From a virus (taxonomy: Duplodnaviria; Heunggongvirae; Uroviricota; Caudoviricetes), in the IMG/VR virus record IMGVR_UViG_643348545_000008, positions 1 through 40,464 of that record: a stretch of DNA of 40,464 nucleotides. One strand, given 5' to 3'. A program made the position numbers and the translations under genes. Below are positions 5,912-38,206 of the stretch, piece by piece (the first letter of the stretch is position 1; every line of letters begins with the position of its first letter). The notes beneath the pieces are model-generated. The model saw only the letters and a list, made by a program, of their open reading frames with translations, searched no databases and had not been told where the DNA came from.

Positions 5912-6286
5912 ATGCTCATAGATTTGGTTTTACCTTACCCGCCGACGGTGAACACTTACTGGCGACGCCGTGGCAGCACATATTTTGTATCAAAAGCCGG
6001 GGAGCGTTATCGCCGGGCAGTGGCGCTTATTGTTCGCCAGCAGCGCTTGAAATTAAGCCTGTCCGGACGGTTGGCAATAAAAATTATTGCAGAACCACCG
6101 GATAAGCGCCGCCGTGACCTGGACAATATTCTGAAAGCGCCGCTGGATGCGCTGACGCATGCGGGGTTGCTAATGGACGATGAGCAGTTTGATGAAATCA
6201 ATATCGTTCGTGCTCAGCCAGTATCTGGTGGACGTCTGGGGGTGAAGATTTACCCCATAATGCTTGAAGGGCAGGTCAAAAAATGA
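5912..6286 (+). CDS. rusA: Holliday junction resolvase RusA (124 aa)
   Basis: PYPPTVNTYWRRRG ... RRRDLDNILKAPLDAL ... GGRLGVKI are characteristic RusA motifs. Located just upstream of Q. Confidence 0.85.
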   Translation: MLIDLVLPYPPTVNTYWRRRGSTYFVSKAGERYRRAVALIVRQQRLKLSLSGRLAIKIIAEPPDKRRRDLDNILKAPLDALTHAGLLMDDEQFDEINIVRAQPVSGGRLGVKIYPIMLEGQVKK

Positions 6287-7104
6287 AACTGGAAGATTTA
6301 CCGAAATACTACTCCCCAAAATCCCCCGGCCTGACTGATGCATCGGCCTCAACGTCGAAAGATGCGCTGAGTATCACTGATGTGATGGCCGCGCAGGGCA
6401 TGACACAGAATCGGGCTGAGATGGGGTTTTCTGCGTTCCTGGGGAAAATGGGCATTAGTATGAATGACAGAGAGCGGGCAACAGAATTGCTGACAGAATA
6501 TGCACTCAGTCGGTGCGATCGTGTGGCGGCGTTGAGAAAACTTCCGGCAGAAATAAAACCGGTAGTGATGCGCATTATGGCTTCGTACGCTTTTGAGGAT
6601 TATGCCCGCAGCGCAGCGAGTAAAAAGCAGTGCCCCTGTTGCCGAGGGGAAAAATTTATTGAAGGCGAAGTTTTTACAAACAAGGTTCAGTATCCGGATG
6701 GCAAGCCGCCAGTATGGGCAAAGTGTACGAAAGGTGTGTATCCGTCTTACTGGGAAGAATGGAAAAAAATTCGGGAGGTGGTGAAAGTTTCTTGTCCTGA
6801 ATGTAAAGGGAAGGGGGAGATTTCCACTGCCTGTAAAGACTGCCGTGGGCGTGGTGTCGCCATTCATCGTGAAGAGTCGGTAAAACGTGGTATGCCTGTT
6901 ATCAGAGACTGCCAGCGTTGTGGTGGTCGTGGCTGTGAAAGACTACCATCAACGGAGGCATTTAATGCCATACGCAAAGTGACGAGTGCTATCACGCTTG
7001 ATACGTGGAAAAAATCAGTGAAACGCTTTTACGATACGTTGGTGGTTCGGTTTGACATTGAAGAGGCATGGGCGGAGCGGCAGTTAAAGAGGGTAACGCG
7101 ATAG
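6283..7104 (+). CDS. Late-gene antiterminator Q (Qin/phage-82-type, 273 aa)
   Basis: Overlaps the rusA stop (ATGA). Multiple CxxC zinc-finger pairs and an MKLEDLPKYYSPK N-terminus like QuuQ-type antiterminators. Followed by a promoter-terminator pair. Confidence 0.75.
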   Translation: MKLEDLPKYYSPKSPGLTDASASTSKDALSITDVMAAQGMTQNRAEMGFSAFLGKMGISMNDRERATELLTEYALSRCDRVAALRKLPAEIKPVVMRIMASYAFEDYARSAASKKQCPCCRGEKFIEGEVFTNKVQYPDGKPPVWAKCTKGVYPSYWEEWKKIREVVKVSCPECKGKGEISTACKDCRGRGVAIHREESVKRGMPVIRDCQRCGGRGCERLPSTEAFNAIRKVTSAITLDTWKKSVKRFYDTLVVRFDIEEAWAERQLKRVTR

Positions 7105-7186: not shown

Positions 7187-7209
7187 CCCGCCGCCTGGCG
7201 GGTTTTTTA
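7187..7209 (+). terminator. Candidate tR' terminator
   Basis: cccgcc-gcct-ggcggg hairpin plus tttttt, about 50 nt downstream of the candidate pR'. Confidence 0.5.
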
Positions 7210-7330
7210 TGACTGAAATCGCGTCAGTACAGTAAACGCGCTGGTGGCGGTGAATACCTGTCTTTCAGCTTGCTGGCTTTTTCGACAAGAGTTATTGGTG
7301 TGTCACGTTAACCGGAAAAGGGAAAAAGAC

Positions 7331-7528
7331 ATGCTGAAACAGCAGGATATGACCGAAACCGCCAGAGTGGTGTTTAATGAATTAAGTGCCACCGAACCGG
7401 CGACAGTCGGGGAGATTGCGCAGAATACTTACCTTTCACGTGAACGCTGCCAGTTAATACTGACCCAGCTTGTTATGGCGGGACTGGCAGACTATCAGTT
7501 CGGTTGTTACAGACGCCTTCAGTCCTGA
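7331..7528 (+). CDS. Small putative winged-helix DNA-binding protein (65 aa)
   Basis: ATG with an aaaaggga RBS. ATVGEIAQNTYLSRERCQLILTQLVMAGLADY resembles a helix-turn-helix. Followed by a terminator. Confidence 0.4.
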   Translation: MLKQQDMTETARVVFNELSATEPATVGEIAQNTYLSRERCQLILTQLVMAGLADYQFGCYRRLQS

Positions 7529-7539
7529 AGGCTTTTTTA
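7515..7539 (+). terminator. Intrinsic terminator
   Basis: gccttcag-tcc-tgaaggc hairpin followed by tttttt. Confidence 0.55.
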
Positions 7540-7678
7540 TTTGTGGTAAATGGGCGGCTGGTGGGTGTTAGGGGCACTCACCAGCCATCTGCTCATGCGT
7601 CCGGATCACAAGCAAACCTCAGGCCCACTGCTTTGCGCAAAAGCAGAATGAGCCTATCAGAGACAGGCTTAATGATCC

Positions 7679-8737
7679 ATGCTTAATACTGTAAAAATAT
7701 CCAGTTGTGAGTTAATCAACGCCGACTGCCTGGAATTTATCCGGTCGTTACCCGAAAATTCTGTTGACCTGATAGTCACGGACCCGCCGTACTTTAAAGT
7801 GAAGCCTGAGGGCTGGGATAACCAGTGGAAGGGCGACGATGATTACCTGAAATGGCTGGACCAGTGTCTGGCGCAGTTCTGGCGGGTGCTGAAACCTGCC
7901 GGAAGTCTTTACCTGTTCTGTGGCCATCGCCTGGCGTCTGACATTGAAATCATGATGCGTGAACGCTTCAATGTGCTGAACCATATTATCTGGGCGAAGC
8001 CGTCCGGACGCTGGAACGGGTGCAACAAGGAAAGCCTGAGGGCATATTTCCCCGCCACAGAGCGCATTCTGTTCGCGGAACATTATCAGGGGCCGTATCG
8101 CCCGAAAGATGCCGGGTATGAGGCGAAGGGCAGGGCACTGAAACAGCATGTGATGGCCCCGCTGATTTCTTACTTTCGTGATGCGCGTGCTGCCCTGGGG
8201 ATAACGGCAAAACAGATTGCTGATGCCACAGGAAAGAAAAACATGGTGTCGCACTGGTTCAGTGCCAGCCAGTGGCAGCTACCGGACGAAAGCGATTATC
8301 TGAAATTACAGGCGCTGTTTGCCCGGGTGGCAGAAGAGAAGCATCAGCGCGGAGAACTGGAAAAGCCACATCACCAACTGGTCAGCACATACAGTGAACT
8401 GAACCGGTAGTATACGGAACTGCAGAGTGAATATAAGCATCTGCGGCGGTATTTTGGTGTGACGGTGCAGGTGCCGTACACCGATGTGTGGACGCATAAA
8501 CCGGTGCAGTACTATCCCGGGAAACATCCGTGCGAAAAACCGGCAGAAATGCTGCAGCAGATAATCAGCGCGAGCAGTCGTCCGGGTGACCTGGTTGCAG
8601 ATTTCTTCATGGGGTCAGGTTCGACAGTCAAAGCAGCGATAGCGCTGGGACGTCGTGCAACTGGCGTTGAGCTGGAGACTGAGCGTTTTGAGCAGACGGT
8701 CAGGGAAGTTCAGAATTTAGTCAGTCAGAACGGATGA
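7679..8737 (+). pseudogene. DNA methyltransferase (N6-adenine/N4-cytosine type) interrupted by one in-frame amber codon at 8408..8410
   Basis: ORFs 7679..8410 (DPPY motif) and 8459..8737 (FFMGSGST SAM-binding motif) are in the same frame. Only one TAG separates them and the 16 codons in between are open. Confidence 0.6.
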
Positions 8738-8777
8738 TATTGCAGAATTAGTTACGTACCGTTATTATCCTATGCCC

Positions 8778-8853
8778 GGCCCTTTAGCTCAGTGGTGAGA
8801 GCGAGCGACTCATAATCGCCAGGTCGCTGGTTCAAATCCAGCAAGGGCCACCA
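8778..8853 (+). tRNA. tRNA with CAT anticodon, closest to E. coli tRNA-Ile2 (ileX/ileY-like; formally Met/Ile)
   Basis: 76-nt cloverleaf with GGCCCTT/AAGGGCC acceptor stem, anticodon loop CTCATAA, TTCAAAT T-loop and encoded CCA. Confidence 0.8.
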
Positions 8854-8862
8854 TATCACATA

Positions 8863-8939
8863 CCGCCATTAGCTCATCGGGATAGAGCGCCAGCCTTCGA
8901 AGCTGGCTGCGCGGGGTTCGAGTCCTCGATGGCGGTCCA
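8863..8939 (+). tRNA. tRNA-Arg (anticodon TCG)
   Basis: 77-nt cloverleaf with CCGCCAT/ATGGCGG acceptor stem, anticodon loop CTTCGAA, TTCGAGT T-loop and encoded CCA. The discriminator base is unusual. Confidence 0.7.
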
Positions 8940-9217
8940 TTATCTGCATTATGCGTTGTTGGTTCTGATGAGTGAATCATTGTCTTTTGAGCAACAGGCT
9001 ATCATATAAGATAGCCTCAGACTTCCTTGTTTATTCTCGCCGGATGCTTCGTAGATATTTGCAGGCATCTGTATGCAGGGGTATTATTGCGGCATATATC
9101 ATCCGGAAAAATAAAAACTACATGCTGATCCGGAGATGATAGTTACAAGTCCTCCCGGATCCCGCATATTTACTATATTTTATAGATAATTGTTCTTGTT
9201 AATATGGAGATGGATAA

Positions 9218-9646
9218 ATGTATTGCCGTGCTGTACCAGTTCTTGTTTTGATATTAGCCAGTCTGACAACTGGCTGCACAAAAGATGTATCGACAAATAA
9301 TTATGATGCTTCTCTGTATCACTCAGATAAATTAATAAAGTCGCAAAATTTGAGCTCATCGGAACGTACCCCTGATGCCAGTGAAGAAATCAGGCAGTAT
9401 GCCATTCAGGTCAGGAAAGCCATAGAAGAACAGTTAAAGGATGCGAGTAAGTATTCAGGAAAAGAGTGTTCACTGAGAATGTATATGGCCCCGAATGGTC
9501 TTCTGCTACAGGTTAAAAGAGAAAGCGGTGATCCCGATTTATGTCGTGAAGCGATGAATGCAGTAAAGAATGCTGATATACCATCACCACCGTCTTCAGG
9601 AGTATATAAAGCATTTAGAAATGGCGTGCTGGATTTTAAACTCTGA
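9218..9646 (+). CDS. Lipoprotein with TolA C-terminal (domain III)-like domain (142 aa)
   Basis: Signal peptide with lipobox-like LTTGC. Residues 55-142 align by eye with E. coli TolA domain III (GKECSLRMYMAPNGLLLQVKRESGDPDLC...IPSPPSSGVYKAFRNGVLDFK versus GKTCTLRIKLAPDGMLLDIKPEGGDPALC...IPKPPSQAVYEVFKNAPLDFK). ggag RBS. Confidence 0.7.
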   Translation: MYCRAVPVLVLILASLTTGCTKDVSTNNYDASLYHSDKLIKSQNLSSSERTPDASEEIRQYAIQVRKAIEEQLKDASKYSGKECSLRMYMAPNGLLLQVKRESGDPDLCREAMNAVKNADIPSPPSSGVYKAFRNGVLDFKL

Positions 9647-10171
9647 CAGGGGGAGAAGATTTTCTCCTGTCCTGATGATTTTGGGGCGCTGGAAAGATAT
9701 TGTGCTGTGAAGTGTTAAATTCCTCACAATTCAGTAAGTTGACAGTTGCCTGTCAGACTGAGCATTTGTTAAAAAAATTTCGCATGGTGAATCCCCCTGT
9801 GCGGAGGGGCGACTGGTGAACGGTATGATCTCTTTGATGATCGTAAGCGAGAATATGCGGGTTTAGTGTCACCGGGCTGAACTCACCGGGAGGCACCCGG
9901 CACCATGCAATGGCACATAGCGCCACTCTCCAGCCCCTCTCCGGAGGGGCTTTCTTGTGGGCAAAAAAAAAGCCCGAGTGGGTTCGGGCAACAGCATGAG
10001 ATATACATTTTTATAATCGAATGGATTTTAACCAGAATTCATAAGGCTGCGCAACTGCGCGGCCTTTTTCGTATTGCGGGCTGTAGTCTTCCTCCTGCCA
10101 TTGTCCTGTAACTTCCGGACTTCAGCCCGCCCCTCATCTGACTCACAACATTATCCCGACCGGGAGGATTC

Positions 10172-12160
10172 ATGACATTTAAACACTACGATGTGGTCAG
10201 GGCGGCGTCGCCGTCAGACCTTGCGGAGCGACTGACACAAAAACTGAAGGAGGGGTGGCAGCCATTTGGCAGCCCTGTCGCCATCACGCCTTATACCCTG
10301 ATGCAGGCCATTGCGGCGGAAGGTGATGTCACCACACCTGTGGTGGTGAAGCCGTCGGATGGAGAAGGCACAGTTATCAGCACCACCAGCGAACCGGAGT
10401 ATTACTTTGTTGTTGTTCTGGCGGGGCAGTCAAACTCAATGTCTTTTGGTGAAGGGCTGCCGCTGCCGGAGACATATGACCGTCCGGACCCGCGTATTAA
10501 ACAGCTGGCGCGTCGCAGTACGGTGACGCCGGGTGGTGCCGCCTGTAAATATAACGACATCATTCCGGCAGACCACTGTCTGCATGATGTGCAGGATATG
10601 AGTAACCTGAATCATCCTGAAGCGGACCTTAATAAAGGGCAGTACGGTTGTGTGGGGCATGCTCTGCATGTTGGCAAAAAGCTGCTGCCGTTTATGCCTG
10701 CGAATGCGGGTATCCTTCTTGTTCCATGTGGCCGTGGCGATTCGGGATTTACTGCGGGGGCCGAGGGGGCGTTTAACGCAGCGTCGGGAGCGACCGCAGG
10801 CTCGTCCCTGTGGGGGGCGGATAAACCGCTGTATTATGACCTGGTCAGCAGAACCCGTGCGGCCCTGAAGAAAAATCCGAAGAACGTGCTGTTATCAGTG
10901 ATCTGGATGCAGGGAGAAAAAGATGTCAGTTCGGGGAGACATGCAGAACACAATGCGCTTTTCCTTGCCATGGTAAATCAGTTCCGTACGGAACTGGCAG
11001 ATGTGGCAGAGCAGTGTACTGGCGGGACAACGGCCAGCGTCCCGTGGATTTGCGGTGATACCACGTACTACTGGAAGGAAAGGTATGCAGCGCCGTATGA
11101 GGCGGTTTACGGTGGGTATAAAGGCAAAGCTGCGCAGAATATTCACTTTGTGCCGTTGATGACGGATGAGCATGGTGTGAATGTGCCGACAAACGAGCCG
11201 TCAGAAGATCCGGACATTATCCCGGCGGGATACTATGGCGCTGCGTCACGCACTGCCAGTAACTGGACGTCAGCCGATCGTAAAACGCACTTCAGTTCAT
11301 GGGCGCGAAGAGGCCTTGTTTCAGACCGCCTGGCAGGTGCCATTTTGCAGTACGCCGGGCGGACATTATCGTTCCTTACCGGGCAGAGCGCACCGCAGTC
11401 GGGTGGTACAACTCCCGGTGATGATGTCAGTCCGGGGGTACCGGGTGTTGAGAAACCGCAGGATGGCGGTGTTGCTGGTACTGGTCATGATGAGGCCGTG
11501 AGCAGTACCAGGACGGTGGCTGAATATGATGCGAACAGTGGAAATGGTGTATGGACAGAGCAGCAGTGGGGGGCTGCCGGTGGCAAAGGCACTGTGACTG
11601 ATGACGGTGGACGGAAAGCGCTGCGACTGGAAAAACAGCCCGGTAAACTGACGTCCTGGAAAATGTTCTGTACTGTTGCAGTGGAGGAGGCAAAAAATCT
11701 TCTCAGCAAGGGGGGTGAAATTGCCGTACGGTTCAAAATTCCGGACGGAAGCGAACTGGTGAACGGACAGTTTGTCTTTGGTCTCTACTGGCCGGTGTCG
11801 CAGTGGGCGTCAGGCGCGGCAGCAAACAGTATGCTGGCATCATTCTTCCTTCAGACGGATGCATCAAATCTGAATCTTATGCACCACAAGGGCACGTCGA
11901 ATGCACAACTGGGTACATTTGGTGCGTTTGACCATAACTGGCATACGGTTGTTTTCCGCTTTGCGGGAAATAACAGCGAAAGAGTCGTTCCGGTGATTGA
12001 TGGTACAGAGCAGACGGCGTTTGACCTTGTGATGTGGACAAATGATGGCTTTACAGCAGATACGCTGACGCTGACAGATATCACGGGGGCAAAAGCGACG
12101 TATCCGGTACTGCTTGATACGGTCACAGTCAAAGTTAACGAAAGCCGGGCATCATCATAA
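10172..12160 (+). CDS. nanS-p: Prophage sialate O-acetylesterase, NanS-p-like (DUF1737 N-terminus + SASA esterase domain, 662 aa)
   Basis: N-terminal MTFKHYDVV...GWQPFG module. VVLAGQSNSMSFGEG serine-esterase motif. gggagga RBS. Sits between the Q-tRNA region and the lysis genes, as nanS-p does in Stx-type prophages. Confidence 0.75.
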   Translation: MTFKHYDVVRAASPSDLAERLTQKLKEGWQPFGSPVAITPYTLMQAIAAEGDVTTPVVVKPSDGEGTVISTTSEPEYYFVVVLAGQSNSMSFGEGLPLPETYDRPDPRIKQLARRSTVTPGGAACKYNDIIPADHCLHDVQDMSNLNHPEADLNKGQYGCVGHALHVGKKLLPFMPANAGILLVPCGRGDSGFTAGAEGAFNAASGATAGSSLWGADKPLYYDLVSRTRAALKKNPKNVLLSVIWMQGEKDVSSGRHAEHNALFLAMVNQFRTELADVAEQCTGGTTASVPWICGDTTYYWKERYAAPYEAVYGGYKGKAAQNIHFVPLMTDEHGVNVPTNEPSEDPDIIPAGYYGAASRTASNWTSADRKTHFSSWARRGLVSDRLAGAILQYAGRTLSFLTGQSAPQSGGTTPGDDVSPGVPGVEKPQDGGVAGTGHDEAVSSTRTVAEYDANSGNGVWTEQQWGAAGGKGTVTDDGGRKALRLEKQPGKLTSWKMFCTVAVEEAKNLLSKGGEIAVRFKIPDGSELVNGQFVFGLYWPVSQWASGAAANSMLASFFLQTDASNLNLMHHKGTSNAQLGTFGAFDHNWHTVVFRFAGNNSERVVPVIDGTEQTAFDLVMWTNDGFTADTLTLTDITGAKATYPVLLDTVTVKVNESRASS

Positions 12161-12884: not shown

Positions 12885-13100
12885 ATGTACCAGATGGAAA
12901 AAATCACAACAGGTGTGTCATACACCACGTCAGCGGTGGGAACGGGCTACTGGTTCCTGCAGTTGCTGGACAGGGTTTCCCCGTCTCAGTGGGCGGCAAT
13001 AGGCGTGCTGGGGAGTCTGCTGTTTGGTCTGCTGACGTACCTGACGAACCTGTATTTCAAAATTAAAGAAGACCGGCGTAAGGCGGCCCGGGGAGAGTAA
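12885..13100 (+). CDS. Pinholin, phage 21 S-like (71 aa, dual-start M1/M4)
   Basis: [19 protein letters not shown]...[14 protein letters not shown]...[22 protein letters not shown] closely resembles S21. Two transmembrane segments and a charged C-terminus. Confidence 0.85.
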
Positions 13101-13104
13101 AGCG

Positions 13105-14094
13105 ATGAATAAAAAATATGAACTGGTTGTTAAAGGGATAAATCATTACCCGGATAAGATAACTGTTACTGTGGCACTGGAAATTGGTGGGTATCCGTCA
13201 CTGTTGTTGCCATATGTGGCGATTAGTCTTGACCGTACTGAAGGTGCCACGCTGGAGTTTTACGAAGCTGAGGCGAAAAAGCAGGCGAAGCAGTTTTTCA
13301 TGGATGTTGCTGCCGGGTTATGTGAAGGGAACGAACCGTTGCCGGAAAAGCGCCCCGTAATTTTAGAGGCGCAGGATGTGTTGATAACCTACAAAGGAAA
13401 GCTACCGGGAAGAATTACTGATGCTCTGAAGATGCCGCCGTCAACACTGCGGTCAGAAAAAGATGATGTTGAATCACGTATTGAAAAACTGGAGCGCTAT
13501 ATCGCTGAATTGAAAAAAAGCGCCCCAACAAAAAATGAGGTGCTTGCAGCAGATGAAATGAAAGAAGCTATTCTTGATCGCGCGGCGCATCTAAGCTGCG
13601 CTTCACGGTTGAAAGAGCATCTTCAGCGGCCTGAAGAAAAACGCCGCGATGAGCAGTTTGCTGCGTTTGACGATTATTGTCGGAAAGTGATGAGCAGAAA
13701 TCTCGCAGAGTGTTTCAGTATTCATAATGATAATTTCAGTGAGCTGGAATGGGAGTGTAACCGGCCATCCTTTGTTGTATCCGGTGATGCCGGGAAAATA
13801 ACCATCTCAGAAAATGGGAAAGTAACACCTCCATCGCACCAGCACAGTGAGGAGCTCATTGAATTTGCCATTGATTACCTGAAGAACAATAAAAAGCAGG
13901 GGCTGATGAAGCGCGTTGGCCGTTGCATGGGATATCTTCAGGTAGCCGCTGAGATTGAAGCGCTGGCCAGTGGTGCTGATAAGGATGCAATTGTGCGGGA
14001 GGCTCTTCTTCGTGATTTTAATACTCCACCCTTTAAAAAAGTGCCGGCTTACTGGCTTCATCCGGGGCTGACTTATCTTAAAGTGCGTATTTAG
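13105..14094 (+). CDS. Unrecognised soluble protein inserted between holin and endolysin (329 aa)
   Basis: Long ORF with clean start, in the same orientation as the lysis genes. More AT-rich than its neighbours. No transmembrane segment or known motif recognised. Confidence 0.6.
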   Translation: MNKKYELVVKGINHYPDKITVTVALEIGGYPSLLLPYVAISLDRTEGATLEFYEAEAKKQAKQFFMDVAAGLCEGNEPLPEKRPVILEAQDVLITYKGKLPGRITDALKMPPSTLRSEKDDVESRIEKLERYIAELKKSAPTKNEVLAADEMKEAILDRAAHLSCASRLKEHLQRPEEKRRDEQFAAFDDYCRKVMSRNLAECFSIHNDNFSELEWECNRPSFVVSGDAGKITISENGKVTPPSHQHSEELIEFAIDYLKNNKKQGLMKRVGRCMGYLQVAAEIEALASGADKDAIVREALLRDFNTPPFKKVPAYWLHPGLTYLKVRI

Positions 14095-14130
14095 TGGGCC
14101 AGGGACAGCGGCTGAATATTTAATATATCC

Positions 14131-14664
14131 ATGAACACCAAAATCAAATACGGCCTGTCGGCTGCCGTTCTGGCGCTGATTGCCGCTGGTGCGCCTGCGC
14201 CTGACATTCTCGACCAGTTTCTGGATGAAAAGGAAGGCAACCACACCACGGCATACCGTGATGGTGCAGGTATCTGGACCATCTGCCGTGGTGCCATCAT
14301 GGTGGATGGCAAACCTGTCGTTCCGGGCATGAAGTTGTCGAAGGAAAAATGCGACCAGGTTAACGCCATTGAGCGTGATAAAGCGCTGGCGTGGGTGGAG
14401 AAAAACATCAGAGTGCCGCTGACCGAACCCCAGAAAGCGGGGATCGCGTCATTCTGTCCGTACAACATTGGTCCCGGTAAGTGTTTCCCGTCGACGTTTT
14501 ACAGACGAATTAATGCTGGTGATCGAAAAGGTGCCTGCGAAGCGATTCGCTGGTGGATTAAGGACGGTGGCAGGGACTGCCGTATTCGCTCAAATAACTG
14601 TTACGGTCAGGTATCCCGGCGAGACCAGGAGAGCGCGCTGGCGTGCTGGGGAATCGACAGATAA
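14131..14664 (+). CDS. SAR endolysin (T4-lysozyme fold, R21/P1 Lyz-like, 177 aa)
   Basis: N-terminal signal-anchor-release helix (LSAAVLALIAAGAPA). Catalytic E-x8-D-x5-T arrangement (EGNHTTAYRDGAGIWTICRG). Confidence 0.85.
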   Translation: MNTKIKYGLSAAVLALIAAGAPAPDILDQFLDEKEGNHTTAYRDGAGIWTICRGAIMVDGKPVVPGMKLSKEKCDQVNAIERDKALAWVEKNIRVPLTEPQKAGIASFCPYNIGPGKCFPSTFYRRINAGDRKGACEAIRWWIKDGGRDCRIRSNNCYGQVSRRDQESALACWGIDR

Positions 14665-14858
14665 GCAGAATATTTTGCTAATAAATGACGTTGGCCAAGG
14701 CGGACGGATAACACGAAATCCTGCGAACTGGCAAAATGTAAGTGAATAAAAGTAAAAACCCCGTTTGTTGGCAGCAAGCGGGGTTTTGTTTTTATGGCAG
14801 TAAGCTATGGGAGGCTGCCTTGATTGATTTTAGCAAACTGATTAGGGAGTTGCGACTC

Positions 14859-14954
14859 ATGATTAGTCAATTACCAAACTGGAAATTTTTGCTGGTCTGG
14901 AGCATCCCTTTTTTATGGGTAGTATCCCAGTTAATTGTGGCAATTAAGGGGTAG
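14859..14954 (+). CDS. Small hydrophobic peptide (31 aa)
   Basis: gggag RBS 8 nt upstream. Single predicted transmembrane helix. First of four tandem small ORFs. Confidence 0.35.
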   Translation: MISQLPNWKFLLVWSIPFLWVVSQLIVAIKG

Positions 14955-14956
14955 CT

Positions 14957-15088
14957 ATGTCAGACAAACTCATAACGCCGGCAAAGGTCCTGTGTGTGAT
15001 TGTCGGTATTTCATTTTCACTAATGCTGGTTGCTCTTTTTCTGTCCCTCGCCTGGGTGATGTTGTCTTCGTCGGGGCTGCTGGGGTGA
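14957..15088 (+). CDS. Small hydrophobic peptide (43 aa)
   Basis: ATG 2 nt after the previous stop. aagggg RBS. Single transmembrane helix. Confidence 0.35.
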   Translation: MSDKLITPAKVLCVIVGISFSLMLVALFLSLAWVMLSSSGLLG

Positions 15089-15207
15089 CAGTGACTGATG
15101 ACATCAGCAGAGCGCTGGCTTTTGCTATTAAGTGGGTGGCTGTTGGTATTGCTGTGTCTCCGATGCTGTATGGGCTGGCAAAACTGGTCATTGCGCTGAA
15201 ATCGTGA
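15085..15207 (+). CDS. Small hydrophobic peptide (about 40 aa, GTG start)
   Basis: GTGA overlap with the previous stop. Sequence ALAFAIKWVAVGIAV is paralogous to the next peptide. Confidence 0.3.
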   Translation: MTVTDDISRALAFAIKWVAVGIAVSPMLYGLAKLVIALKS

Positions 15208-15218
15208 ACTTTAAAAAG

Positions 15219-15305
15219 ATGAGTGCTGAACTTATTCGGGCAATGGCATTTGCCATTCGTATTGTGGCCATTGCTGTTCTGGTCTGGGCAATTCGTTGGT
15301 GGTGA
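15219..15305 (+). CDS. Small hydrophobic peptide (28 aa)
   Basis: AMAFAIRIVAIAVLVW is paralogous to the preceding peptide. Its stop lies 1 nt before the Rz start. Confidence 0.3.
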   Translation: MSAELIRAMAFAIRIVAIAVLVWAIRWW

Positions 15306-15306
15306 T

Positions 15307-15801
15307 ATGAACCGTGTTCTGTGTGTGGTGATTATTGTCATGCTGGTAGCCTGTGGTGCGCTTAGTCTGGGGCTGAATCATTACCGTGATAACGCCATCA
15401 CCTACAAAGAGCAGCGCGATAAAAAAGTCAGTGAGCTGGAGCAGGCAAATGCAACCATTACTGATATGCAGCAGCGCCAGCGTGATGTTGCTGCACTTGA
15501 TGCCAGATACTCGAGGGAATTAGCCGATGCGAGAGCTGAAAATGAAACTCTGCGCGCTGACGTTGCCGCTGGTCGTAAGCGCCTGCGGGTCAACGCCACC
15601 TGCCCCGGTACCGTGCGTGAAGCCACCGGCACCTCCGGCGTGGATAATGCAACCGGCCCCCGACTGGCAGACACCGCTGAACGGGATTATTTCATCCTCA
15701 GAGAACGGTTGATGACAATGCAGAAGCAGCTGGAAGGGGCGCAGGACTATATCCGCACTCAGTGCACTAAGCTGGCTTTTTATTATCCGGAGGATACATG
15801 A
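15307..15801 (+). CDS. i-spanin Rz (164 aa)
   Basis: N-terminal transmembrane helix then a coiled-coil periplasmic domain. Contains an embedded +1-frame lipoprotein gene. Confidence 0.8.
   Translation: MNRVLCVVIIVMLVACGALSLGLNHYRDNAITYKEQRDKKVSELEQANATITDMQQRQRDVAALDARYSRELADARAENETLRADVAAGRKRLRVNATCPGTVREATGTSGVDNATGPRLADTAERDYFILRERLMTMQKQLEGAQDYIRTQCTKLAFYYPEDT
15542..15712 (+). CDS. o-spanin Rz1, embedded in Rz in the +1 frame (56 aa)
   Basis: MKLCALTLPLVVSACGS signal peptide and lipobox, followed by proline-rich sequence. Entirely inside Rz. Confidence 0.7.
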   Translation: MKLCALTLPLVVSACGSTPPAPVPCVKPPAPPAWIMQPAPDWQTPLNGIISSSENG

Positions 15802-16022: not shown

Positions 16023-16360
16023 GCGACCTTATTATCCATGCGCGGTATTGTCGCCGTATTCCTGCATTAACAGAGACCGCAGCCCGACAGGGAGACTCCT
16101 CTGCGAGAGTGTGCGGGGATAATCAAAAACGATACACACCGGGGTTTACCGCGTTAACGGAGCGCGGCGTTGTCCCCTCATGGTCGCTGGTCCGGTGCGA
16201 TGGTGGAAGAAACCGGACGATGTGTTACCTCGCAAGCTCTGTTATGTCATGTGTCTGATTTGTGATTTAAGTCGGATAATTGTCGTTGCCATTAAACAGA
16301 GGATTGATGACCGACAGGGTGGCATTGTTAGAATAAGACTTATTCTTATCTGTGCCGGGA

Positions 16361-16693
16361 ATGAAAATGAAAAGAAATCTTCCGTTAATTATTTTGTTGT
16401 CTTCTCTGGTTATGGGCTGTACGCAACATAAAACAGATATGCCCCGACAGTTGGTTAAGGCATTACCACAATATCCGGCCTATGCAGCGGCAAATTATAT
16501 AAAGGGACGGGTTGATGTGAAGTTTGATATTGGTGCTGATGGTACTGTCACCCGAATTGAGTTTATCCGTTCAGAGCCGCACCATTTGTTTGATGAGCAG
16601 GTTGTAAAGGCGATGGCAAAATGGCGATTTGAGAAGGACAGGCCGTGTAAAGGCGTGAAGAAAACGTTTATCTTTAGTCCTTCTGCACCCTGA
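16361..16693 (+). CDS. Lipoprotein with TonB C-terminal-like domain (about 110 aa)
   Basis: Signal peptide with lipobox-like LVMGC. PQYPAYAAANYIKGRVDVKFDIGADGTV...FDEQVVKAMAKWRFE aligns with the TonB C-terminal domain ([28 protein letters not shown]...FEREVKNAMRRWRYE). Confidence 0.7.
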   Translation: MKMKRNLPLIILLSSLVMGCTQHKTDMPRQLVKALPQYPAYAAANYIKGRVDVKFDIGADGTVTRIEFIRSEPHHLFDEQVVKAMAKWRFEKDRPCKGVKKTFIFSPSAP

Positions 16694-34897: not shown

Positions 34898-35073
34898 AAC
34901 ATAAAAAAATCCCGCAGTGATCGCGGAGCTGCGGGGACAGACAAATGAAGATTAGTGTTAAGGAGTTGTTTTTTTATGTCACGGCAAAAAAACACTAACG
35001 CAGCGAAATTATACGCGCCACAGTCAGTGTGTGAAAATGTGAAGATATTCAGAATTTTTATTCAGTCATGATA

Positions 35074-35106
35074 CAGGCATCCTCCGGGGTGCCTGTTGTT
35101 TTTTGG
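35074..35106 (+). terminator. Hairpin plus T-tract, candidate terminator just upstream of J
   Basis: caggca-(10 nt)-tgcctg followed by ttgttttttgg. Confidence 0.4.
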
Positions 35107-35147
35107 GCATAAACAGATTCAGACATCAGACAGGAGAGGGGGACAGA

Positions 35148-37539
35148 GTGGGTAAAGGTGGCGGCAAGGCACACACGCCTCGTGAGGCGAAGGATAATCT
35201 CAAATCCACGCAGATGATGAGCGTGATTGATGCCATTGGTGAGGGACCGATAGAAGGTCCGGTGAAGGGACTGCAGAGTATCCTGGTGAACAAAACCCCG
35301 CTGACGGACACGGACGGTAATCCCGTGATACACGGTGTGACCGCCGTCTGGCGTGCCGGGGAGCAGGAGCAGACACCACCGGAAGGCTTTGAGTCCTCCG
35401 GAGCTGAAACTGTACTGGGTGTGGAAGTGACGAAGGCAAAACCGGTGACACGCACCATTACGTCAGCGAACATTGACCGCCTGCGGGTGACCTTCGGGGT
35501 GCAGTCACTGGTGGAGACCACGTCAAAGGGTGACCGTAATCCGACGTCTGTCCGCCTGCTGATTCAGCTTGAGCGTGGTGGTAAATGGATGACGGAAAAG
35601 GATGTCACCATTAACGGCAAGACCACCTCGCAGTTCCTGGCGTCGGTGATTCTGGATAATCTGCCGCCCCGGCCCTTTAACATCCGGATGGTCAGGGAGA
35701 CGGCGGACAGCACCACGGACCAGCTGCAGAATAAGACGCTCTGGTCGTCATACACCGAAATCATCGATGTGAAACAGTGCTACCCGAACACGGTCATTGT
35801 GGGGCTGCAGGTGGATGCGGAGCAGTTCGGCGGCCAGCAGATGACGGTGAACTACCATATCCGTGGTCGCATCATCCAGGTGCCGTCAAACTATGACCCG
35901 GAAAAACGCACGTACAGCGGTATCTGGGACGGCAGTCTGAAACCGGCATACAGCAACAACCCGGCCTGGTGTCTGTGGGACATGCTGACTCACCCGCGCT
36001 ACGGCATGGGAAAACGCCTGGGGGCGGCGGATGTGGACAAGTGGGCGCTGTATGCCATCGGGCAGTACTGCGACCAGACGGTCCCGGATGGTTTCGGGGG
36101 CACAGAGCCGCGGATGACCTTTAATGCGTACCTGGCACAACAGCGTAAGGCATGGGACGTGCTCAGTGATTTCTGCTCGGCGGTTCCGGATTAACGCACC
36201 GGCAGCGCCTGCCGGTGTTGAACTGACGCCGGGGTATTTTCAGATAACGGCAGTCCCGCGTCTTGCGGTGTATGACCCGACGGTGCAGTTTGAGTTCTGG
36301 TTTTCGGAGGCAAAAATTGCAGACGCCGCACAGGTGGAAACCTCTGTCCGTTATCTGGGGACCGGCAGTCAGTGGAGTGTCTCCGGTCCGCACATTAAGC
36401 CCGGAAAGGATTTCTGGTTTTATGTGCGCAGCGTCAACCTGGTGGGTAAATCTGCTTTTGTGGAAGCCAGTGGACGGGCGAGCAATGATGCTGCGGGCTA
36501 TCTGGAACTTTTCCGGGAAAAGATAGGAAAACTGCATCTGGCAGAGGCGCTGTGGGCAGAGATTGACAACAGTCAGCTGAAGGACGAGATGGCGGAAATG
36601 CAGACCACCATCACCGAAACCCGCAATGAAATCACACAGACGGTCAGTAAAACGCTGGAGGACCAGAGCGCCACCATACAGCAGATACAGCGCGTGCAGA
36701 AGGACACAAATGATGACCTTGCTGCACTTTACATGCTGAAGGTACAGAAAACAAAAAATGGCATACCCTATGTTGCCGGTATTGGAGCGGGGATTGAGGA
36801 TACTGATGGCCAGCCCCTGAGCAACATACTGCTGCTGGCTGACCGTATTGCGATGATTAACCCGGAGGACGGCAACACCACGCCGTTATTTGTGGCGCAG
36901 GGGAATCAGTTGTTCATGAACGATGTGTTCCTGAAGCGACTGTTTGCGGTGAGTATCACCTCGTCCGGCAATCCCCCGACGTTTTCCCTGACGCCGGAGG
37001 GCAGGCTGACCGCAAGAAATGCTGATATCAGCGGTAACGTGAATGCGAATTCCGGGACGCTCAACAACGTCACGATTAACGAGAACTGTCGGGTTCTGGG
37101 AAAACTGTCCGCGAACCAGATTGAAGGCGATCTCGTTAAAACAGTGGGCAAAGCTTTCCCCCGGGATTCCCGTGCACCGGAGCGGTGGCCATCAGGGACC
37201 ATTACCGTCAGGGTTTATGACGATCAGCCGTTTGACCGGCAGATTGTTATTCCGGCGGTGGCATTCAGTGGCGCTAAGCATAAGAGAGAGCATACTGATA
37301 TTTACTCCTCATGCCGTCTGATAGTGCGGAAAAACGGTGCTGAAATTTATAACCGTACCGCGCTGGATAATACGCTGATTTACAGTGGCGTTATTGATAT
37401 GCCTGCCGGTCACGGTCACATGACACTGGAGTTTTCGGTGTCAGCATGGCTGGTAAATAACTGGTATCCCACAGCAAGTATCAGCGATTTGCTGGTTGTG
37501 GTGATGAAGAAAGCCACTGCAGGCATCACGATTAGCTGA
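35148..37539 (+). pseudogene. J: Central tail fibre / host-specificity protein J with internal out-of-frame deletion (N-terminal part 35148..36194, C-terminal part about 36190..37539)
   Basis: First ORF matches the lambda J N-terminus (KAHTPREAKDNLKSTQ ... [10 protein letters not shown]) then stops. A second ORF in another frame matches the J C-terminal third ([19 protein letters not shown] ... [10 protein letters not shown] ...). About 400 central residues are absent. Confidence 0.7.
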
Positions 37540-37606: not shown

Positions 37607-38206
37607 ATGCGTAAAGTTTGTGCAGCCATTTTGTCCGCAGCCATCTGTCTGTCCGTATCCGGTGCGCCTGCATGGGCGTCTGAGCAGCAGGCCACGCTGA
37701 GTGCGGGGTATCTTCATGCCCTGACGAACACTACCGGTAGTGATGATCTGAACGGGATTAACGTGAAATACCGTTATGAATTTACGGACACGCTGGGGCT
37801 GATTACGTCATTCAGTTATGCCAATGCTGAAGGTGAGCAAAAAACGCACTACAACGATACCCGCTGGCATGAGGATTCTGTGCGTAACCGCTGGTTCAGC
37901 GTGATGGCGGGGCCATCTGTGCGCGTGAATGAATGGTTCAGCGCTTATGCGCTGGCCGGAGTGTCGTATGCCCGGGTGTCGTCTTTTGCCGGTGATTATG
38001 TGACCCTCACGTCAGATGAGGGTAAAAAGCAGGAGCACCTGACCCGTTCGGACAGCGGACGCCGCAGCCATACCGCACTGACATACAGTGCAGGCGTGCA
38101 GATTAACCCGACAGAAAATATCGTGGTCGACCTGGCTTATGAAGCCTCAGGACGTGGTGACTGGCGTACGGAGGCGTTTATTGTCGGCACCGGATACCGG
38201 TTCTGA
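37607..38206 (+). CDS. lom: Outer membrane protein Lom (Ail/PagC family, 199 aa)
   Basis: Signal peptide. Beta-barrel signature ending GTGYRF. Position immediately after J as in lambda. Confidence 0.85.
   Translation: MRKVCAAILSAAICLSVSGAPAWASEQQATLSAGYLHALTNTTGSDDLNGINVKYRYEFTDTLGLITSFSYANAEGEQKTHYNDTRWHEDSVRNRWFSVMAGPSVRVNEWFSAYALAGVSYARVSSFAGDYVTLTSDEGKKQEHLTRSDSGRRSHTALTYSAGVQINPTENIVVDLAYEASGRGDWRTEAFIVGTGYRF

Follow-up and report, generated by a model that had tools for sequence, protein, structure and literature searches.

A prophage lipoprotein built around a TolA domain III copy occupies the stx slot and may act as an outer-membrane decoy

Introduction

Why would a prophage carry a lipoprotein that ends in the C-terminal domain of TolA? 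The question is raised by a gene at positions 9218..9646 of a 40,464-nt stretch of DNA from a tailed virus (Caudoviricetes; IMG/VR record IMGVR_UViG_643348545_000008, positions 1 to 40,464), hereafter the window. Its product combines a lipoprotein-type signal with a homologue of TolA domain III (TolA-III), and the same lambdoid E. coli prophage encodes a second lipoprotein with a TonB C-terminal domain (CTD). The anatomy of the TolA-III lipoprotein is solid and widespread, and from it we infer a function: with a probability of roughly 45%, the protein is an outer-membrane-tethered decoy that would capture TolA ligands and give tolerance or exclusion.

TolA domain III and the lipoprotein signal

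The window protein matched the TolA C-terminal family of Pfam (PF06519) over residues 52–140 with 81.4 bits (E=5.7e-23; cut-off 25), covering profile positions 7–96 of 96. Among PDB sequences, phmmer found E. coli TolA domain III at E ~1e-25 over residues 54–141 (1S62, 3QDP, 2X9A, 1TOL and recent TolQRA cryo-electron microscopy entries), and 45 of these 88 residues were identical in a gap-free alignment (51%). An earlier interpretation made from the DNA letters (the sequence-only reading) had put the match to TolA-III at about half the positions and had named structure prediction as a check; the alignment agreed with the estimate, and so did the structures with the assignment. In the AlphaFold model (seven family members), residues 1–51 were disordered (predicted local distance difference test, pLDDT, <50) and residues 52–142 folded (pLDDT 70–85). 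The top Foldseek matches in the PDB were TolA-III structures, the best being 3QDR_A (target-normalised template modelling score 0.86, root-mean-square deviation 1.6 Å, 89 columns).

Beyond the sequence identity, the likeness to E. coli TolA-III (1S62, 1TOL, 3QDP/3QDR, 2X9A) included the alpha/beta fold, the disulfide pair and two edge strands. Cys84 and Cys109 aligned with the disulfide cysteines of TolA-III and were invariant in 46 relatives. The beta3 edge strand was kept (NGVLDFK in the window protein, NAPLDFK in TolA; 5/7), as was beta2 (LLQVKRESG and LLDIKPEGG, respectively; 5/9).

By profile, fold and disulfide the window protein belongs to the TolA C-terminal domain family, yet it is not TolA. 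The model for full TolA (NF007065) scored 103 bits, below its cut-off of 213, and aligned over C-terminal model positions 297–386 of 387 only; the cut-off of TIGR02794 was passed on the C-terminal domain alone. Compared with E. coli TolA, the window protein lacked the transmembrane helix that couples to TolQ-TolR as well as the long helical domain II, so it could not be energised. It would be anchored, by a predicted lipid, from the opposite membrane, and it is encoded in the late region of a prophage, between tRNA genes and a nanS-p-like esterase. PGAP called the same open reading frame (ORF) in identical E. coli genomes, where the gene was 100% identical (WP_000271631.1), and labelled it "tolA: cell envelope integrity protein TolA". 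This name is a misannotation, since the gene sits outside the tol-pal operon.

The N-terminus, MYCRAVPVLVLILASLTTGC, showed a basic n-region, an unbroken hydrophobic core and the lipobox [T][T][G]C20, and we take it to fit the PROSITE-style lipoprotein rule. The 142-aa product with a lipoprotein signal peptide that the sequence-only reading had described was thus recovered with all its parts, from the ATG start to Cys20. By these features the protein is a predicted lipoprotein and substrate of signal peptidase II. The residue at +2 after Cys20 is Thr; the lack of Asp at this position predicts sorting to the outer membrane.

A proposed decoy for TolA ligands

TolA-III is a hub at which ligands bind by strand augmentation, the N-terminal strand of TolB and the N1 domain of g3p at beta3 and colicin A at beta2 (PMC7391070). 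We hypothesize that a phage-borne copy of this domain, having lost TolA's inner-membrane anchor and helical domain II, would come to lie next to the ligands to which host TolA extends from the inner membrane, and would be its competitor for them. It would bind these ligands without transmitting force, and the result would be competitive inhibition. Candidate ligands are the N1 domain of filamentous-phage g3p and, among the group A colicins, the translocation domains of the TolA binders A, N, K and E1; TolB, through its N-terminal strand, is a weaker candidate. A lysogen or an infected cell would gain tolerance or the exclusion of superinfecting phages. The TonB-CTD lipoprotein would act likewise on TonB-box ligands.

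Parasitic ligands bind TolA-III with near-micromolar affinity, much tighter than TolB. The TolA-TolB complex resembles that of TonB with the TonB box and is weak (dissociation constant 40-200 uM; PMC7391070). Because of this difference, a modest, low-abundance decoy could capture invaders while burdening Tol-Pal little and without a full tol phenotype.

Isolated periplasmic TolA-III, studied by Levengood-Freyermuth et al. in 1993, is said to be dominant-negative, with a tol phenotype and tolerance to colicins and phages, and the TonB-CTD fragment of Howard et al. from 2001 reportedly acts likewise, with a tonB phenotype. The window protein resembles these recombinant fragments in being an isolated C-terminal domain, predicted to lie in the periplasm and uncoupled from the motor. 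The fragments are soluble, overproduced laboratory constructs, whereas the window gene is natural and its product has a predicted lipid tether and a linker.

Phages are known to use lipoproteins for exclusion. Cor (phi80, N15, HK022) is a phage outer-membrane exclusion lipoprotein. T5 Llp is described, in a preprint, as a lipoprotein of the outer membrane's inner leaflet that blocks FhuA (bioRxiv 10.64898/2026.03.26.714494). Like proteins of this kind, the window protein is phage-encoded and has a lipoprotein signal, and it may share the blocking activity. Whereas the target of Llp and Cor is a receptor barrel, that of the window protein, as a copy of a transducer tip, would be the ligands of the transducer. 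Of the families returned by the Pfam, PHROGs and PADLOC scans, TolA, TonB and PHROG 5772 alone scored significantly, and none was an Llp or Cor family. The exclusion exerted by pIII of filamentous phages would involve the same interface as a mirror image: pIII saturates TolA, whereas the prophage TolA domain would saturate the ligand. Periplasmic g3p-N1 sequesters TolA and blocks uptake of colicin A and phage (PMC10424213). The window protein would be best classed as a phage exclusion lipoprotein made from a copy of the tip of a host energy transducer.

The companion TonB lipoprotein and TonB-TolA fusions

The sequence-only reading had also named a companion TonB C-terminal-domain lipoprotein (16361..16693), and this gene proved to be as described. 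Its N-terminus, MKRNLPLIILLSSLVMGC, carries the lipobox LVMGC and is followed by a TonB C-terminal domain (Pfam TonB_C, E=1.3e-14; E. coli TonB CTD 1U07, E=6e-16). The start chosen by PGAP is preceded by two in-frame starts (ATG 16361, GTG 16352). The gene lies downstream of Rz/Rz1 in a GC trough, with a promoter-like site ahead of it. It occurred in 1,616 of 5,426 complete E. coli genomes (~30%), including ST131 isolates, and also in phage 21, Stx1a phages, ev017, Perceval and JLK-2012.

PHROGs labels the family of this protein (phrog_1267) "Rz-like spanin", probably by propagation of annotation from neighbouring genes. A spanin role was rejected, as a separate Rz with embedded Rz1 is present and the protein itself is a TonB CTD.

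Relatives of the TolA-III lipoprotein were sought with a profile among 1.84 billion cluster representatives; 478 matched at E<=1e-3, and the best 150 of these were examined. Seventy-three were proteins of 100-190 aa, and 49 of the 73 had a lipobox. Among the remaining 76, which comprised full-length TolAs, fragments and other proteins, only four had one, and three of these four were confirmed TonB-TolA fusions. Among the same best 150 of 478 were several more short TolA-CTD proteins with ordinary signal peptides. None of the 49 lipobox proteins had Asp at +2, and their estimated linker from Cys to domain had a median of 27 residues. Named members came from Serratia, Kosakonia, Klebsiella michiganensis and Citrobacter and were auto-named TolA or "colicin import membrane protein". 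Short, predicted TolA-III lipoproteins are widespread in Enterobacterales. One further protein, P0040 (323 aa), had a signal peptide without a lipobox and two reported TolA stretches; its C-terminal TolA domain was 77% identical to E. coli TolA-III, so that it is another TolA-tip protein, predicted to be exported only.

In the long lipoproteins P0046, P0109 and P0162, and in the relatives P0189-P0191, TonB_C was followed by TolA_C in one chain. Such fusions were found in Citrobacter prophages and in metagenomes. P0109 lies in a Rac/lambdoid prophage of Citrobacter freundii (GCA_018423075.1, 8001..8630 in locus coordinates), between the replication gene P and NinG/Q, and P0046 adjoins an N6/N4 DNA methylase, as in the window. 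That the two lipoproteins of the window prophage serve one purpose is supported most strongly by these fusions. Of about 11 prophage loci of the window's allelic type (type a, see below) that had sufficient DNA downstream, 6 also encoded the TonB-CTD lipoprotein. The proposal of the sequence-only reading that both import pathways may be targeted gained from the fusions and from a tandem TolA-III lipoprotein as far as the pairing goes; the function that the same reading proposed, a decoy or a tuning of the envelope and of vesicle release, is still a hypothesis. More tentatively, tailed temperate phages of Enterobacterales may repeatedly have copied the ligand-binding tips of TolA and TonB as natural, dominant-negative outer-membrane lipoprotein decoys, whether separate, in tandem or fused. 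Colicins, microcins and phages would thereby be denied both energised routes of import, a broad, receptor-independent exclusion.

Distribution, alleles and selection

In a blastn survey with 65-70% sensitivity, the TolA-like gene was found in 897 of 5,426 complete E. coli genomes (~16%), nearly always on the chromosome. Three allelic types were distinguished in E. coli: (a) that of the window, (b) one ~72% identical and (c) one ~66% identical, by far the commonest. All three had a lipobox (LAAGC, LTAGC and IIIGC in the other types) and a signal ending in Gly-Cys-Thr, and in all three the gene follows Q and tRNA genes and precedes the lysis genes. A search for related loci with the E. coli alignment returned E. 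coli-type prophage contigs only.

Type-c loci (Qin-like) encode a second, very divergent TolA-III lipoprotein (WP_001348108.1) 600 bp from the start of the first gene; this was so in every IMG/VR type-c locus with enough sequence. The tandem paralogue starts with VGLKKIVMLTFWVGFVAGC, has the lipobox VAGC and matches Pfam TolA at E=1e-14. Examples are found in E. coli JE86-ST05 (7547..7921) and in phage mEp460_ev081 (6512..6907; both in locus coordinates). In consensus scans, this commonest type had a 10/12 promoter-like site at 30 nt upstream, and the gene pair was followed by a terminator-like hairpin, an arrangement that would allow expression in the lysogen.

Between the types, the TolA-III domain had a Nei-Gojobori dN/dS (nonsynonymous to synonymous substitution) of 0.23-0.29, against 0.40-0.59 for the signal peptide plus linker, which indicates purifying selection on the domain. 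In the window, the TolA-like ORF was intact although two other genes of the prophage, the methylase (by a nonsense codon) and J, were broken.

These data bear on the explanation that the gene is a functionless relic, an enterobacterial tolA fragment acquired by illegitimate recombination and now drifting. Such a fragment would account for the name TolA given by PGAP, for the C-terminal frameshifts seen in some alleles and for the near absence of the gene from isolated phages. The dN/dS of the domain speaks against drift, as do the presence of the gene in so many genomes, the recurrence of the same architecture in many clusters and the gained signal peptide and lipobox, which were kept in four divergent lineages. 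A recent capture from E. coli tolA was rejected: blastn matched the 897 genomes with the prophage gene and not the chromosomal tolA of all 5,426, so the DNA is too diverged from tolA for the gene to be a recent fragment of it. We consider a relic highly improbable.

Position in the stx slot

The locus has the order Q, methylase, tRNAs, TolA-III ORF, esterase (Table 1). A 6-kb query of the region matched 381 phage records, mostly of Shiga toxin (Stx)-converting phages, with stx2A/stx2B within the joined span. Relative to the Stx2a phage Stx2_95, window positions 7188-8960 aligned at 95.6% and 9724-10695 at 81.5%, and the 763 bp between them stood in for 1,445 bp with a third tRNA, stx2A and stx2B. 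The TolA-III gene therefore occupies the stx slot at nucleotide resolution, which made exact the late moron site that the sequence-only reading had assigned to it from gene order. The cassette had a GC content of 38-42%, against about 50-55% in both flanks, and with its sharp breakpoints and deviant composition it is a discrete, moron-like insert. To the right, an STnc100 small RNA and an AsxR-like anti-sRNA both lie in the flank common with Stx2 phages, and the esterase aligned with yjhS of these phages, the gene after stx.

Table 1. Features of the locus and of the prophage in window coordinates
Feature	Position	Strand	Evidence or remark
Antiterminator Q	6283..7104	+	Pfam Antiterm, E=1.2e-50
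Terminator-like hairpin after Q	7187-7202		Terminator scan
Phage DNA methylase	7679..8737	+	In-frame stop at codon 244 (Gln in Stx2_95), giving 243-aa and 92-aa ORFs
Phage tRNA, CAT anticodon	8778..8853	+	ARAGORN (Met), Rfam, PGAP (Ile, in identical gene)
Phage tRNA, Arg-TCG	8863..8939	+	ARAGORN, Rfam, PGAP; directly left of the cassette with the preceding tRNA
Low-GC cassette holding the TolA-III gene, 763 bp	8961..9723	+	BLAST breakpoints against Stx2_95 (LC567838); composition
Weak sigma-70 promoter-like site, TTTGCA-18-TATTAT	9058..9087	+	9/12, 130 nt upstream of the gene; consensus scan only
Shine-Dalgarno-like GGAG	9206..9209	+	8 nt ahead of ATG; read from the sequence
TolA-domain-III lipoprotein gene	9218..9646	+	142-aa ORF, ATG start; Pfam, NCBIfam and PDB matches; AlphaFold/Foldseek; PGAP-annotated identical gene
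Signal peptide and lipobox Cys20	9218-9277	+	Part of the TolA-III lipoprotein gene
Disordered linker, residues 21-53 (~33 residues)	9278-9376	+	Part of the TolA-III lipoprotein gene
TolA domain III, residues 54-142	9377-9643	+	Part of the TolA-III lipoprotein gene; followed by the stop codon
STnc100 small RNA	9753..9962	+	Adjoins the cassette on its right, starting 107 nt past the TolA-like stop; Rfam 179 bits, E=3.7e-42
Hairpin (STnc100 terminator)	9932-9951		Terminator scan
AsxR-like anti-sRNA	9967..10019	-	Rfam 63 bits, exactly the gathering score
nanS-p-like (yjhS type) SASA carbohydrate esterase, 662 aa	10172..12160	+	Pfam DUF1737, SASA, DUF6645
Lysis cassette	12885..15801	+	Between the two lipoprotein genes; ORFs/translations; annotation of identical prophage
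Holin	12885-13100	+	Lysis cassette
Lysozyme	14131-14664	+	Lysis cassette
Rz	15223..15801	+	Lysis cassette
Rz1, embedded in Rz	15527..15712	+	Lysis cassette; proline-rich lipoprotein
Promoter-like site ahead of TonB-CTD gene	16307-16334		Promoter scan
TonB C-terminal-domain lipoprotein, 108 aa	16367..16693	+	PGAP start; lipobox LVMGC, Thr at +2
General porin, 387 aa	31508..32671	+	Pfam Porin_1, E=1.8e-139; within the tail-gene block
J tail-tip gene	34900..37539	+	Truncated, frameshifted: stops in all frames 34900-35040; one frame open 35043-36192; other frame 36118-37537
Lom protein	37607..38206	+	Ail_Lom, E=3.9e-126

The degraded-looking J gene suggests that the window prophage is probably defective. 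With the porin, Lom and the TolA-III and TonB-CTD lipoproteins, the prophage holds four envelope-directed cargo genes.

The slot likens the gene to the known late-operon morons of lambdoid phages (stx1/2, bor, lom, the PA-2 Lc porin), which it resembles in its low GC and conserved phage flanks and, in the case of stx2AB, in the slot itself; unlike stx, the cargo here is no toxin but an envelope protein of host-gene origin. By analogy with Bor and Lom of lambda, the lipoprotein might tune Tol-Pal (and its partner TonB) in the lysogen and affect host physiology or virulence, for instance vesicles, serum or bile resistance, biofilm or a surface antigen. The stx slot itself, the Lom and porin genes of the same prophage, the place of the TonB-CTD gene downstream of Rz/Rz1 (that of bor in lambda) and the conservation of chromosomal family genes across Kosakonia sacchari genomes are consistent with such a benefit. 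Nothing, however, points at any specific phenotype, and the TonB-CTD fusion suggests import machinery over surface functions. The known ligands of the TolA-III fold, moreover, are TolB, g3p and colicins only (PMC7391070). A benefit of this kind seems quite unlikely to be the function of the gene.

Late-lytic sabotage as the main rival

The main rival to the decoy is sabotage of the envelope late in the lytic cycle. The protein, made only from the Q-dependent late transcript, would bind the N-terminus of TolB at the outer membrane, block TolA-driven release of Pal and loosen the link between the outer membrane and the wall. The contact would be the same as that of the decoy, but the benefit would differ: lysis by spanins would be eased, vesicles would increase or progeny would be released better. 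Gene order supports this: within the late operon the gene immediately precedes the lysis cassette, the pair of TolA-like genes in Qin-like prophages ends ~250 bp before the holin, and the TonB-CTD lipoprotein, with its "Rz-like spanin" label, comes directly after Rz/Rz1. The window allele has no convincing private promoter. Mutants in tol-pal hypervesiculate and leak (PMC7391070).

The wider family speaks against it. TonB CTD and TolA-III are fused in one lipoprotein, though blocking TonB has no known envelope-weakening role. Relatives show no link with lysis genes: that of Citrobacter, a fusion, is placed in the early nin region, outside the late operon, and others, including those of Kosakonia, are stable chromosomal genes with neither phage nor lysis genes nearby; we count this in favour of the decoy. 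The TolA-III gene is intact while the tail-tip gene of the same prophage is broken, spanins are already encoded, and the affinity of TolA for TolB is weak. Taken with these points, late-lytic sabotage appears unlikely.

Evidence weighing against the decoy

Several observations weigh against the outer-membrane decoy. Within the protein, Thr at -3 of the lipobox is atypical though allowed, and conservation of the edge strands alone cannot imply binding, because strand augmentation uses backbone contacts. As to expression, the gene lies downstream of Q and the hairpin that follows it, inside the Q-dependent late operon, and given this place it may be silent in lysogens. Upstream of the window allele there is one promoter-like site, a weak one, of a kind that showed no enrichment over shuffled sequences. 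Protection might also be narrow, since colicins E2-E9 bind TolB and not TolA, and a decoy with affinity for TolB or for TonB boxes as well could compromise the envelope or the uptake of iron.

From the databases, frameshifts near the C-terminus affect a minority of the type-c alleles, the family occurred in 1 of 50,697 phage records (mEp460_ev081), and PADLOC held no model for a TolA-III or TonB-CTD lipoprotein. The full-text literature, in which subscription journals are mostly uncovered, gave no functional study, experiment or expression data for the gene, in line with the doubt of the sequence-only reading about prior characterisation. A "TolA" reported in PMC11125564 (EDL933_2012, 32-fold up with ciprofloxacin) was dropped as expression evidence, since that paper's own table lists it as a tail fiber protein.

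A fold search of the viral structures in BFVD found no structure with the TolA-III lipoprotein fold, and PHROG 5772, which matches the protein, is labelled "unknown function". Given the single phage record and the missing BFVD fold, the TolA-III lipoprotein is a prophage trait that phage-centred catalogues miss.

Significance

The gene is already in the databases under a wrong name and its architecture is common; in the literature (subscription journals poorly covered), a description of its function or of the decoy idea was not found. The minimum consequence is that thousands of database entries carry a wrong name, be it "cell envelope integrity protein TolA", "colicin import membrane protein" or "Rz-like spanin", and mimicry of a transducer tip is missing from current defence catalogues. 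If the decoy reading is true, a common prophage cargo would set the sensitivity to colicins and phages in a large share of E. coli strains, and this would bear on colicin- and phage-based therapeutics, on competition in the gut and on hosts for phage display. The lipoproteins would then be natural, evolution-tuned inhibitors of Tol-Pal and Ton, which could show which contacts of TolA and TonB are blockable at a tolerable cost.

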